From: Candidatus Nomurabacteria bacterium
GTDB taxonomy: Bacteria > Patescibacteriota > Patescibacteriia > UBA1558 > GWA2-36-10
Length of the DNA stretch: 64,000 nucleotides
Direction of reading: 5' to 3'
NCBI GenBank assembly: GCA_020632415.1
Contig: JACKFO010000002.1
Coordinates: forward strand, 776,413 to 840,412
Part shown: positions 55,831-58,322 of the stretch, in pieces
How positions within the stretch are numbered: the first letter of the stretch is position 1
How the letters are laid out: each line of letters starts with the position of its first letter
Program-made: the position numbers and the translations under genes
Notes under the pieces: generated by a model
Database searches by the model: none
What the model saw: only the letters and a program-made list of their open reading frames with translations
Told to the model about the DNA's origin: nothing

Positions 55831-56103
55831 ATGACTCAGAAACCGCTCGAAGAGACACTGAAAGAAATCAGGAGAATCGTTTCCGGTGAAGTGGAAGCCA
55901 TTGGCAACAAGACGGTTGTTGTCAGGGTCCGCCTTACGGGAGGCTGGAGTCAGCGGCAGGGAGTTTCCGCCAAGATGAGGAGTGCTCGTCTCTACGGGGT
56001 GACTCTGGAGCAGGGGAATCTGGTCATCGCCGGTACCAAGAGCAATATCCTCGAGCGGGTTCGTTCCTGCAAGGAACAGATACTTCTCGAGCGGGCTTCT
56101 TGA
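55831..56103 (+). CDS. Hypothetical 90-aa protein encoded in GC-rich islet E (MTQKPLEETLKEIRRIVSGEVEAIGNKTVVVRVRLTGGW...)
   Basis: GGGAGAG SD-like sequence upstream of the ATG; GC-rich codon usage unlike host genes; followed by a strong terminator; no recognisable domain. Confidence 0.45.
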   Translation: MTQKPLEETLKEIRRIVSGEVEAIGNKTVVVRVRLTGGWSQRQGVSAKMRSARLYGVTLEQGNLVIAGTKSNILERVRSCKEQILLERAS

Positions 56104-56125
56104 ATCGAATGCCTTTGAACATTAC

Positions 56126-56166
56126 GACCCCCGTTGCGCTTGCGTGGCGGGGGCTTCTTTTTTATC
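56126..56166 (+). terminator. GC-rich intrinsic terminator closing islet E (cccccg...cggggg plus CTTCTTTTTTT)
   Basis: 6-bp G/C stem with a 14-nt loop, followed by a T tract. Confidence 0.5.
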
Positions 56167-56215
56167 ATTGACTTTTTAGCTATAAAAAATTATACTAGAC
56201 CAGTAAAATTATTTT

Positions 56216-56305
56216 GGAGAGTTCGCATAGTGGTCTAGTGCGCACGCTTGGAAAGCGTGTGAGGTGTAAAAGCCTCCAAGGGTTCGAATCCCTTACTCTC
56301 CGCCA
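56216..56305 (+). tRNA. tRNA-Ser (anticodon GGA), class II tRNA with long variable arm, CCA encoded
   Basis: Acceptor stem GGAGAGT/ACTCTCC; anticodon stem CACGC/GCGTG with loop TTGGAAA; extended variable arm; T-arm GGTTCGAATCC; 3' GCCA. Confidence 0.85.
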
Positions 56306-56357
56306 TCCGCCTTCGCCAAGGCTTCGGCGAGATGTCGGTAAGTATAGAAAAGCGATT

Positions 56358-56618
56358 ATGTATTACGTTTATATTTTAAAAGAAAAGTCCAAACATCATT
56401 TTTATATTGGGTTTACTAATAATTTAGTAAGACGTATAAAAGAGCATGAAAATGATGAAAGTTTATCAACTAGAGGAAGAGAGTGGAAAATATATTGCTA
56501 TTTCTGTTTTCAAAACAGAAAAACAGCTTCAGATTTTGAGAGTTATTTAAAGACGGGATCTGGTAGAGCATTTGCTAAAAAGCATTTTGAATTTAAAATC
56601 GACGAAGCTTTAGCGTAG
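56358..56618 (+). CDS. Small GIY-YIG nuclease family protein (about 86 aa)
   Basis: MYYVYILKEKSKHHFYIGFTNNLVRRIKEH matches the GIY-YIG motif (YVYIL...YIG..N...R...H); lies between the tRNA-Ser 3' end and a 17-nt direct repeat of that end. Confidence 0.7.
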   Translation: MYYVYILKEKSKHHFYIGFTNNLVRRIKEHENDESLSTRGREWKIYCYFCFQNRKTASDFESYLKTGSGRAFAKKHFEFKIDEALA

Positions 56619-56623
56619 TCGTT

Positions 56624-56640
56624 CCCTTACTCTCCGCCAC
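56624..56640 (+). repeat. 17-nt direct repeat of the tRNA-Ser 3' end (tcccttactctccgcca; first copy 56289-56305): putative att site of a 318-bp integrated mini-element
   Basis: Exact 17/17 identity read directly in the sequence. Confidence 0.7.
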
Positions 56641-56687
56641 AAATCACCATAAGAGTCAACTGCCTTTAAAGGTGGTTTTTTGTTATA

Positions 56688-58322
56688 ATGAAAGTTATGA
56701 AACAAAAACAAGCTCTAGATATTTTAAAGATGGGACATAATGTCTTTTTGACCGGTGCCGCTGGATCTGGTAAAACTCATGTTTTAAGTCAATATATCAA
56801 ATTGTTAAAACAAGCTGGCATTGGTGTAGCTGTCACAGCTTCCACTGGCATTGCTGCTACACATCTTAATGGTCTGACTATTCACTCTTGGTCAGGAATA
56901 GGAATACGAGATGCTTTGTCAAAAGCAGAGATTAAATCTTTACTTGAAAAAGCTTATTTAAAAAAACATTTTGCCAAAACTGATGTTTTGATTATTGACG
57001 AGGTATCAATGTTGCCGCCGAATTTACTTGATTTAGTCAATAAAGTCTGCAAGGCATTTAAAGAAAATGAAAAACCGTTTGGTGGAATGCAAGTTATTCT
57101 TTCCGGAGATTTATTTCAATTGCCACCTATCAATAGAGATAAAGCTACTACAAAATATTTTACAGATTCAAAAGCTTGGGAGGAGATGGAGGCTTATGTT
57201 TGTCATCTTTCAGAACAGTATCGGCATGATGACGATCAATTAAGTGATGTCTTAAATGCTATTCGTTCAAATACAGTTTCTGATAAAACATTAAAATCCT
57301 TACATCAAAGATTTGAAGCGCCGATAGATGAAAATATTGTCGCTACAAAATTATACACACATAATGTTGATGTGGATCGTATTAATAATCAAGAATTATT
57401 AAAAATTAAAAATCCAATAGAAATTTACAAGATGTCATCGCGTGGCAAAAAACCACTTGTAGAAACATTGGTAAAAAATTGTCTTGCTCCCGAAACGCTT
57501 AGTTTAAAAAAAGGTGCTACTGTCATGTTCGTCAAAAACAATTTTGAACTAGGTTATGTCAATGGAACATTAGGGAGTGTCATTGGCTTTGATGATCAAG
57601 AAAATTATCCCATAGTAGAGACTTACAGTGGTAAAATCATCAAAGCTTCTCCAGAACGTTGGATCATCGAAGAAGATGATAAGACTTTAGCCGAAATTGA
57701 CCAGATCCCATTGAGGCTTGCTTGGGCGATCACTGTCCATAAGAGTCAGGGGATGACTTTAGACGCTGCTGAAATTGATCTTTCTAAGTCATTTGTTTCA
57801 GGTATGGGTTACGTGGCGCTTTCTCGTGTACGCTCACTCTCTGGTTTACGGCTTCTTGGTTTAAATGAACTTGCTTTGATTAGCGATGAGCAGGTTATTG
57901 AAATTGATAGATTATTAAGAATCAAATCCCAAGAAGCGGTTAATTTTGTTGAAACTCTTAATGATGCTGATAAAAAAAAGCGTCAACAATTATTTATTAA
58001 GACTTCGGCCAAAGAACAGGTAGCTGAAGAAAGAATATCAAGTATTGATAAAACAAGGTTGTTGCTTGAACAAAAAAAATCAACCCAAGAGATGGCAGAG
58101 GAAAGAAATATTAGTACTGGGACTATCATTGGTCACATTGAGCAGCTGAAAGCGCGAGGTGATCAACTGGATATTGATTATTTAAAACCAAAAAAAGATC
58201 GTTTTATGATCATCGCCAAAGCTTTTCAGGATTCTGGAGATACGATGCTTTCGCCAGTAAAAGAAATGCTCGGACCTGGTTATTCATATGATGAGCTAAA
58301 ATTAACGCGCTTATTTTTATGA
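56688..58322 (+). CDS. Pif1/RecD-like SF1B DNA helicase with a C-terminal helix-turn-helix region
   Basis: Walker A GAAGSGKTHV, Walker B DEVSML, helicase motifs (QLPPI, TVHKSQGMT), C-terminal KSTQEMAEERNISTGTIIGHIEQL HTH-like segment. Confidence 0.8.
   Translation: MKVMKQKQALDILKMGHNVFLTGAAGSGKTHVLSQYIKLLKQAGIGVAVTASTGIAATHLNGLTIHSWSGIGIRDALSKAEIKSLLEKAYLKKHFAKTDVLIIDEVSMLPPNLLDLVNKVCKAFKENEKPFGGMQVILSGDLFQLPPINRDKATTKYFTDSKAWEEMEAYVCHLSEQYRHDDDQLSDVLNAIRSNTVSDKTLKSLHQRFEAPIDENIVATKLYTHNVDVDRINNQELLKIKNPIEIYKMSSRGKKPLVETLVKNCLAPETLSLKKGATVMFVKNNFELGYVNGTLGSVIGFDDQENYPIVETYSGKIIKASPERWIIEEDDKTLAEIDQIPLRLAWAITVHKSQGMTLDAAEIDLSKSFVSGMGYVALSRVRSLSGLRLLGLNELALISDEQVIEIDRLLRIKSQEAVNFVETLNDADKKKRQQLFIKTSAKEQVAEERISSIDKTRLLLEQKKSTQEMAEERNISTGTIIGHIEQLKARGDQLDIDYLKPKKDRFMIIAKAFQDSGDTMLSPVKEMLGPGYSYDELKLTRLFL

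Follow-up and report, generated by a model that had tools for sequence, protein, structure and literature searches.

The 3' ends of tRNA genes are classic landing pads of integrase-driven islands and phages, and in such elements the insert lies between direct repeats of the tRNA 3' end, with the element-borne copy regenerating the tRNA. We detected a similar arrangement in a 64,000-nucleotide stretch of a Candidatus Nomurabacteria bacterium genome (assembly GCA_020632415.1, contig JACKFO010000002.1, positions 776,413 to 840,412; hereafter the window), where a segment carrying one gene, for a GIY-YIG nuclease of 86 amino acids (aa), is inserted at the 3' end of a serine tRNA gene, tRNA-Ser(GGA). 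Whereas tRNA-targeting islands have an integrase and a fixed att core, here there is neither, the insert measures 334 bp, and the repeat varies in sequence and length with the tRNA. We suggest, with a probability of about 0.6, that the segment is a minimal selfish element of the homing-endonuclease or "mobile ORF" type (ORF, open reading frame) that colonises the 3' ends of tRNA genes.

SegB of phage T4, a free-standing GIY-YIG homing endonuclease encoded in the tRNA gene cluster of the phage, has a 27-bp site that includes the 11-bp TpsiC stem-loop motif of tRNA genes (PMC2330249). Its gene, like that of the window, is a GIY-YIG gene lying beside tRNA genes, and it drives its own inheritance along with that of neighbouring tRNA DNA (PMC2330249). 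Here the second repeat copy starts in the T loop or T stem, so that both systems point to one region of the tRNA gene. SegB is, however, a phage protein of the I-TevI type, whereas ours is a chromosomal 86-aa domain of the UPF0213/Slx1 type, and SegB homing relies on flanking phage homology, with no tRNA 3'-end duplication and no hairpin modules described. In fungal mitochondria (Allomyces, Glomus), mobile ORFs (mORFs) replace the 3' ends of atp6, atp9, cox2 and nad3 (PMC3630166), and the window element shares their layout of gene core, replacement 3' end, endonuclease ORF (GIY-YIG in atp9) and displaced native end; the host gene likewise stays functional and is co-transcribed with the mORF (PMC3630166). 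In the window this order runs from the tRNA core at 56216-56288 through a 3' end and the nuclease ORF to what would be the native end (Table 1). The mORFs target protein-coding genes of organelles, encode full-length endonucleases and leave diverged duplicated segments of 50-280 nt, whereas window-type elements target bacterial tRNA genes, leave a usually identical duplication of 10-25 nt and carry conserved flanking hairpins. Mobile ORFs that home and replace the end of a gene are known in principle; what is new, as far as we checked, is the use of tRNA genes as targets, the clade of the nuclease, the presence of hairpin modules and the very small size.

In sequence and fold the nuclease is closest to the UPF0213/YhbQ/COG2827 proteins and to the Slx1 domain, with which it has the RxxxH and catalytic Glu pattern in common. 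Slx1 has an extra zinc-finger domain and a partner protein, and for the UPF0213/YhbQ/COG2827 proteins no link to tRNA genes or mobility is described in searchable papers. Searches of the full-text literature, with most subscription journals outside their reach, returned no small UPF0213-type GIY-YIG genes tied to tRNA 3' ends and no description of the 3'-end duplication or the hairpin spacer of such genes; a Caulobacter paper mentions three small COG2827 genes and gives their role as unknown. The hairpins resemble those of REP/RAYT systems, known for their GTAG signature, in which short imperfect G(T/A)AG palindromes also occur in both orientations and in tandem arrays beside a small nuclease gene. 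REP/RAYT systems differ in having a Y1 (HUH) transposase, absent here, and in our hairpins the G(T/A)AG lies inside a 3x3 internal loop. REP repeats are also dispersed, whereas these are tied to tRNA 3' ends, and a motif scan of the window returned only two, both within the element.

An earlier note on this DNA, made from its letters alone, had reported that the last 17 nt of the tRNA recur downstream and bracket the GIY-YIG gene. The repeat is real: TCCCTTACTCTCCGCCA occurs exactly twice in the window, once as the end of the tRNA (copy R1) and once standing alone behind the nuclease gene (copy R2), with a start-to-start distance of 334 nt. The gap is 317 nt, since the note had set R2 one nucleotide too far along, at 56624-56640 and 318 bp downstream. 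R1 takes in the last base of the T loop, the 3' strands of the T stem and the acceptor stem, the discriminator and the CCA. None of 100 dinucleotide-preserving shuffles contained a match, even allowing two mismatches, and the edges of the repeat are sharp (..GAA/T.. against ..CGT/T.. at one side, ..CCA/TCCG against ..CCA/CAAA at the other; slashes mark the boundary). From the tRNA onward the insert consists of a spacer with a left hairpin, the GIY-YIG ORF, a right hairpin and R2. The note had also stated that the interval holds only this ORF and that no integrase is present, and both statements were borne out. Apart from a spurious TTG-started extension in the same frame through the tRNA, neither strand between the repeats has a further ORF of at least 60 aa, and we found no recombinase in the 334 bp or adjoining it, the neighbours being genes for phosphoenolpyruvate (PEP) synthase and a Pif1 helicase. 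The tRNA gene, the only one that ARAGORN reported in the window, is intact by both ARAGORN and the Rfam tRNA model; it is continuous, and no Rfam intron family matched at E up to 1.

Table 1. Features of the insert and its flanks in window coordinates, with the empty junction and the tRNA 3' ends repeated in close relatives (L, locus labels)
Feature	Location	Strand	Details
Sigma-70-like promoter, TTGACT/17 nt/TATACT	56168..56196	+	consensus match only, 10/12
Intact tRNA-Ser(GGA), CCA encoded	56216..56305	+	ARAGORN; Rfam RF00005, 56.6 bits
Repeat copy R1, TCCCTTACTCTCCGCCA	56289..56305	+	tRNA positions 60-76
Inserted segment, 334 bp relative to empty site	56306..56639 (equivalently 56289-56622)	+	
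Left hairpin, cgccTTCGCCAAGGCTTCggcg	56308..56329	-	motif scan; 2 nt past CCA
GIY-YIG nuclease gene, 86 aa	56358..56618	+	catalytic domain only, UPF0213/Slx1 type
Right hairpin, cgacGAAGCTTTAGCGTAgtcg	56600..56621	+	overlaps final codons and stop (..IDEALA-stop), abuts R2
Repeat copy R2, stand-alone last 17 nt of tRNA, TCCCTTACTCTCCGCCA	56623..56639	+	
Terminator-like hairpin and T run	56658..56685	+	native flank, outside insert
Empty junction, ..CTCTCCGCCA/CAAATCACC			expected sequence at an empty site
Repeat of Ser-UGA 3' end	L001, L005		17 nt
Repeat of Lys-UUU 3' end	L002/L007		14 nt
Repeat of Ser-GCU 3' end	L003/L004		15 nt

Unoccupied versions of the site were found in relatives. Locus L086 has a Pif1 protein 85% identical in aa to that of the window, a tRNA-Ser(GGA) identical at 90/90 positions and the gene order of the window (pyruvate kinase, PEP synthase, a small ORF, the tRNA, Pif1, HlyIII, SBF...DnaG), and its Pif1 start codon follows the tRNA after 24 nt, with neither the GIY-YIG gene nor the repeat. 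At L087, a second empty site, the tRNA is identical at 87/90 positions. The gene is thus present or absent at a conserved site among close relatives, as homing genes are; the comparison establishes an insertion polymorphism at the tRNA 3' end, and the small integrated element that the note had proposed stands up. The downstream boundary is fixed by L092 (Pif1 86% identical), which keeps the downstream flank of the window at 63/75 positions (84%), including the terminator-like hairpin and the Pif1 start, so that the DNA past 56639 is native and the insert ends with R2.

The allele at L092 itself has no tRNA and no GIY-YIG gene, although the terminator-like hairpin is retained. There (1690-1790, against 56634-56712 of the window) all that stands before the flank is ..GGGCCGCCA (..CCGCCA) and unrelated DNA with a DUF4238 gene. 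This third allele suggests another insertion or rearrangement, whose breakpoint would lie within the same tRNA 3' end.

A near-identical copy of the element sits at a different tRNA. In GCA_021107775.1 (L001) the 317-nt inter-repeat segment is 94.4% identical (301/319), non-coding spacer included, and the ORF differs by 9 synonymous and 6 non-synonymous codons, but it follows tRNA-Ser(UGA), not tRNA-Ser(GGA), and the tRNA-Ser(GGA) of that genome (L091) has no GIY-YIG gene. The Pif1 genes of this one genome pair are only 80% identical in nucleotides; the element is thus closer than the host genes and stands at a non-orthologous site, another mark of homing genes, seen here in a single pair. The two elements are homologous from the T arm to the last base of R2 (56639), and no further. 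At tRNA position 65 the window has T (..CCCTT..) and L001 has C (..CCCTC..), in both repeat copies alike, and this difference matches the T stem of each tRNA itself. Taken with the empty sites, these comparisons show that the element has recently moved between two serine tRNAs, whose 3' segments are alike at all but 1 of 17 positions.

At L091 (3688-4000) the tRNA-Ser(GGA) lies 5' of Pif1 and is followed by 313 nt of hairpin-rich DNA without an ORF, with hairpins that include gccacGCGGAGCGTggc, gcgcgcGCGGAGCGcgcgc and cgccATTCGC...GCTATggcg; such DNA could be the remains of an element that has decayed, or else a cluster of solo hairpin repeats. A second GIY-YIG subtype of 78-80 aa was observed behind tRNA-Arg(GCG) in L001 (3591-4048) and L005 (4280-4833), both of which also carry the window-type gene behind tRNA-Ser(UGA). 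Because the pairing of subtype and tRNA is the same in both genomes, neighbouring tRNAs can each carry their own nuclease lineage.

Linkage to tRNA genes extends across the family. We fetched 160 loci, 80 from genomes, by a search with the 10 closest sequences, and 80 from metagenomes, whose encoded relatives are 40-67% identical. Their hosts include Patescibacteria, Peregrinibacteria, Babeliales, many Alphaproteobacteria (cultured Bradyrhizobium among them), Chthoniobacterales, Elusimicrobiota and others. Among the loci with at least 400 nt of upstream sequence (76 genome and 58 metagenome), a same-strand tRNA ends within 400 nt 5' of the start codon in 63/76 and 40/58, or 103/134 overall, against 4/442 for the other ORFs of at least 150 aa in the same loci. 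These upstream tRNAs comprise 29 anticodon species and 14 amino-acid identities. The closest proteins (93-63% identity) come from Patescibacteria; each of their genes lies directly 3' of a same-strand tRNA, whose own 3' end recurs as an exact copy behind the gene (Table 1). Across the family, the tRNAs whose 3' ends are repeated include, besides Ser-UGA, Lys-UUU, Ser-GCU, Ser-CGA, Asp, Gly, Asn, Ala-CGC and Ala-UGC. In all, 18 independent loci in other assemblies carry a duplicated tRNA 3' end past the ORF, at 10 tRNA species, and a pattern that recurs in this way is neither chance nor an assembly artefact.

The geometry of the duplication is constant at one edge and variable at the other. On the left, the second copy invariably begins within the T loop or T stem (positions 55-63), while on the right exact matches of 10, 12, 14, 15, 16, 17, 18, 20, 21 and 25 nt were seen; in L093, L095, L100, L134, L136 and L156 similarity extends past the tRNA end, for about 50-76 nt, and takes in a further copy of the spacer that has diverged. 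This variable length and the extension into the spacer fit homologous repair into a tRNA with a solo spacer, not a fixed cut or att core. In L093 the copies differ by 3 mismatches over about 52 nt, and the second has TACC where the tRNA has TCCC, a change expected to disrupt the T stem; hence selection for tRNA function does not act on the second copy. Where a full tRNA is missing (L054, L057, L028, L061, L034), about 17 nt of a tRNA 3' end still stand directly 5' of the spacer, which indicates that the recurring unit includes a tRNA 3' segment at its upstream edge.

In one Bradyrhizobium genome (L054, 2780-2821), GGAGCC-CGGAGATCACCCG-CCTGGCTCCACCA stands before the spacer and GIY-YIG gene in place of a full tRNA-Ala; this looks like a minihelix of acceptor stem and T arm, that is, a tRNA without its D and anticodon arms. 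We also considered tRNA-primed reverse transcription, as 17 nt is the span of a retroviral primer-binding site, and rejected it: CCA is not encoded in Lys-UUU (L002/L007) and Ser-GCU (L003), and the second copies there (..CCCCAC/TT and ..CACCGT/T) follow the gene and not a mature ..CCA end.

The hairpins of the element share one build, for which Rfam has no family: the outer stem, often cgcc/ggcg, leads to a 3x3 internal loop in which G(T/A)A faces G(A/T)A, and beyond this come an inner stem, variable in both length and sequence, and a loop. The left hairpin of the window matches the reverse complement of the right at 17/22 positions. Over the 160 loci the motif occurs 1.39 times per kb in the interval from 350 nt before to about 360 nt after the ORF starts and 0.07 times per kb elsewhere, a 20-fold difference, and the inner-stem positions, whose pairing the search did not require, are Watson-Crick in 142/206 cases. 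Single hairpins are not unusually stable (z -0.6 to -1.2), so their significance rests on conservation and this enrichment. Directly past the tRNA the motif has minus orientation, in relatives as in the window, and the other copy has plus orientation; the latter stands just 5' of the ORF in most relatives and at the ORF 3' end in the subfamily of the window. Opposite orientations cannot give the same RNA motif in one transcript, which argues for a motif that acts in DNA rather than RNA. A weak strand test counted 7 G-T against 11 A-C mismatches in the hairpins.

In alphaproteobacterial spacers the two copies can pair together as a long helix, in which columns 82 and 159 covary (UA 6, AU 4, CG 3, GC 1). 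In the subfamily of the window the outer stems differ (left cgcc/ggcg, right cgac/gtcg), which preserves each local hairpin and weakens pairing between left and right; a cgac...gtcg hairpin before the duplicated tRNA end was also found in L001, L003, L005, L011, L013 and L093. Tandem arrays of hairpin and spacer were observed in L013 (3258-3400; five 31-nt GACGAAGTTAAACGGAGTCGGTCTTTAGATC units before the duplicated tRNA end), L053 (2029-2200; two 82-nt units), L017 (2704-3000), L011 (265-350 and 715-860) and L094 (1351-1450), and these show that hairpin modules can multiply apart from the ORF. The Rfam family sX4 (RF02223, "Proteobacterial sRNA sX4", sRNA denoting small RNA), a Xanthomonas transcript, gave partial matches below its gathering threshold of 70 in L012 (2809-2968, 62.8 bits) and in the window (56211-56357, 27.4 bits). 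It is in effect a tRNA-Ser with the first part of the spacer module, and judged by this correspondence the sX4 family may really be a tRNA precursor carrying the leader of the element. A self-cleaving "theta" ribozyme like that of hepatitis delta virus, starting at the tRNA 3' end, an idea taken from PMC10879173, was rejected as an account of the spacer, as no Rfam ribozyme matched the window or 10 loci at E up to 1 and the spacer of the window is only 52 nt long; the longer spacers of distant relatives could still include one.

The 86-aa product matches the Pfam GIY-YIG family (PF01541) with 49.5 bits (cut-off 22.6, E=5.5e-13) over residues 1-69. Residues Y3, Y5, Y16, G18, T20, R26, H30 and E61 are invariant across 32 relatives, and the window protein has the whole catalytic core (Y5, Y16, G18, R26 and E61, plus H30). 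An AlphaFold2 model (predicted local distance difference test, pLDDT, 89.2) contains the three-stranded sheet flanked by helices that is typical of GIY-YIG domains (E2-9, E15-20, H23-31, E43-51, H54-64, H67-76), with pLDDT falling to about 46 in the C-terminal tail encoded by the right hairpin. Its nearest solved relatives are 1zg2 (UPF0213 BH0048; E=4.8e-13) and the Slx1 nuclease domain (E about 4e-8); the best structural matches in Foldseek were UPF0213 BH0048, Slx1 and the N-terminal domain of UvrC, with I-TevI much more distant, and the profile of group I intron endonucleases (TIGR01453) scored 19.5 bits against a cut-off of 56. By these comparisons the nuclease is a bare catalytic domain of the structure-specific clade. 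The family profile retrieved 26,796 representative clusters at E<=0.001 and 6,579 at E<=1e-10. A search of 2.9 million viral contigs gave 2 weak matches, and PADLOC and PHROGs returned marginal matches to the GIY-YIG domain only, with no sign of a defence system. The public gene collection that we queried has no record of the exact 86-aa product, whereas the neighbouring Pif1 is on record, with a protein in NCBI identical to it at 100%; the source annotation may have missed the nuclease gene or called it otherwise.

The nuclease gene appears to share a transcription unit with the tRNA, with a single promoter before the tRNA and a terminator after R2. The promoter in Table 1 is the only good plus-strand match 5' of the two genes, no promoter-like site was found in the scan of the spacer between them, and in the empty-site relative L086 the tRNA, too, follows a region resembling TTGACT...TATACT. 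Judged from these matches, this promoter probably drives both the tRNA and the ORF, and the transcript probably ends at the hairpin at 56658-56685. In the minimum-free-energy (MFE) fold of the predicted transcript (56216-56690; z = -3.4), the 5' acceptor strand of the tRNA pairs with R2 instead of R1, and on this model the two copies could compete in folding of the precursor. Between PEP synthase and the tRNA promoter we observed a GC-rich island (55831-56163; 55% GC against about 35% for the genome) with a 90-aa ORF (55831-56103), which has no match in Pfam, PHROGs or PADLOC, and then a GC-rich terminator-like hairpin of its own (56128-56163). The same slot in L086 holds an unrelated 106-aa ORF (47% GC against 34% elsewhere), and the position just 5' of the tRNA looks, from these two genomes, like a place for variable cargo.

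We suggest that the mobile unit would consist of the last part of a tRNA gene, running from its T loop or T stem as far as the CCA, followed by the hairpin spacer and a GIY-YIG gene of 80-86 aa, with, in the subfamily of the window, a second, inverted hairpin overlapping the stop codon. On entry, the 3' segment carried by the element would complete the tRNA and keep the gene functional, and the native 3' segment would be displaced beyond the nuclease gene, creating the direct repeat. Having no promoter of its own, the element would probably be co-transcribed from the tRNA promoter as far as the native terminator. The nuclease may then break unoccupied tRNA genes in or near the conserved DNA of the T arm, and repair may copy the element from an occupied gene, with homology supplied on the left by the tRNA body and on the right by the duplicated 3' end, which would act as a portable arm. 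On this model R2 is the displaced native 3' end and doubles, we infer, as the right homology arm. A portable arm would allow movement between genomes with unrelated flanks and between tRNAs with similar 3' ends. The precedents of T4 SegB (PMC2330249) and the fungal mitochondrial mobile ORFs (PMC3630166) make this mechanism plausible.

The earlier note had offered two explanations, a homing-like selfish gene targeting the tRNA 3' region and a decayed integrative element. The former is favoured by the 29 kinds of tRNA, the tRNA-specific repeat and the 94% identical copy at a different tRNA, and the latter finds no support. A tyrosine-integrase island or prophage, deleted down to a passenger nuclease gene between attL and attR, would explain the duplicated tRNA 3' end, which is the classic att signature, and the flank in L092, following ..CCGCCA and unrelated DNA, does mark the tRNA end as a recombination hot spot. 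Yet the interval contains no fragment of a recombinase, the repeat varies from 10 to about 76 nt, and the same minimal architecture recurs at no fewer than 18 loci, 10 tRNA species and several phyla, once as the 94% identical copy, which has the same boundaries; separate episodes of decay would not each leave this one set of parts, and we regard this explanation as extremely improbable. Excision of a circle of about 334 bp through R1 and R2, and its re-integration by a single Campbell-type crossover at a 3' segment, seems unlikely: no recombinase lies within or beside the element, one acting in trans would have to handle at least 10 different core sequences, repeats of 10-17 bp are short for RecA-dependent exchange, and no circle junction was seen, a search for one not being feasible here. 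The crossover would here be made by host recombination or such a trans-acting recombinase, with the GIY-YIG protein stimulating it or serving another role. Direct repeats that bracket the unit exactly, the precise empty site, the loci with a tRNA 3' fragment and spacer but no full tRNA, and tandem arrays of units in L053, L017, L013 and L065 would all agree with such a circle. We give little credence to transposon-like insertion, in which the nuclease would make nicks staggered by about 17 nt, in the T loop and just past the CCA, a unit bounded by inverted hairpins would be joined in, and fill-in would duplicate 17 nt. It would account for a target-derived repeat, for left and right hairpins that form imperfect inverted repeats at the unit ends (17/22), and for the seven loci whose repeats of 16-17 nt start at tRNA position 60 or 61, but repeats range over 10-25 nt and in six loci continue into a second spacer copy, which a fixed stagger cannot produce. 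Moreover, GIY-YIG nucleases are hydrolytic, no transposase or strand-transfer enzyme is present, and in most relatives both hairpins stand 5' of the ORF, leaving it outside the inverted-repeat pair.

A different kind of explanation is that a host nuclease for repair or for tRNA or RNA processing has been domesticated and co-transcribed with the tRNA, the hairpins and the repeat being signals for RNA processing or stability. The single promoter before the tRNA and single terminator past R2, the structured spacer right after the CCA in dozens of loci spanning phyla (with its covarying long-range pair 82/159), the conserved gene behind tRNA-Ala(GGC) of Bradyrhizobium, the size of the family, with its 26,796 representative clusters, and the MFE fold pairing the 5' acceptor strand with R2 all speak for it. 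Close relatives nevertheless lack the gene at an identical tRNA, and the 94% identical copy stands at a different tRNA in a more divergent genome. Most members lack the duplicated segment, which shows decay where it does occur (TCCC to TACC in L093), the oppositely oriented hairpins cannot form the same RNA motif in one transcript, and the mismatch-bias test, though weak, gave no sign of strand-specific selection on RNA (7 against 11); on balance we consider domestication improbable.

Several points weigh against the homing-type element that we prefer. An occupied tRNA gene equals an empty one up to the CCA, and our model gives no account of how it escapes cutting. The GIY-YIG domain fills residues 1-76, leaving no DNA-binding module such as those of I-TevI or SegB, and cleavage of DNA by the 86-aa protein, as well as its site, is a prediction. 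R1 and R2 are identical in the window, so separate origins are not distinguishable there, and the majority of distant relatives have no detectable duplication. Phage and plasmid collections searched for carriers gave no match. The loci were selected by protein similarity, so the percentages reported above describe this GIY-YIG family only. Finally, the Bradyrhizobium gene lies behind tRNA-Ala(GGC) in 23 fetched loci, a pattern that could reflect fixation or domestication instead of ongoing mobility.

If the homing-type reading is right, there would be a second, integrase-free route to the tRNA sites used by islands and phages, depending on a nuclease and a carried replacement 3' end. The element would then represent, in about 330 bp and 86 aa, a minimal homing system found in nature, with a target region present in every tRNA gene. 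Tentatively, and with the odds somewhat against us, we extend this to a wider proposal: that the Slx1-like domain, together with the hairpins of the element, recognises the T-arm DNA common to all tRNA genes or a structure formed by it, and that these are a previously unrecognised class of phylum-spanning parasites of tRNA genes with tens of thousands of members, among the smallest autonomous mobile elements (about 330 bp and one protein of 80-86 aa), explaining many tRNA-adjacent hairpin repeats and trailers such as sX4. For annotation, to which a product missing from the queried gene collection is directly relevant, tRNA-adjacent hairpin repeats, spurious ORFs and "small RNAs" in tRNA trailers would be parts of mobile elements. 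The stand-alone GIY-YIG proteins of bacteria in UPF0213/COG2827, a large family that has so far lacked a function, would thereby gain a functional context.

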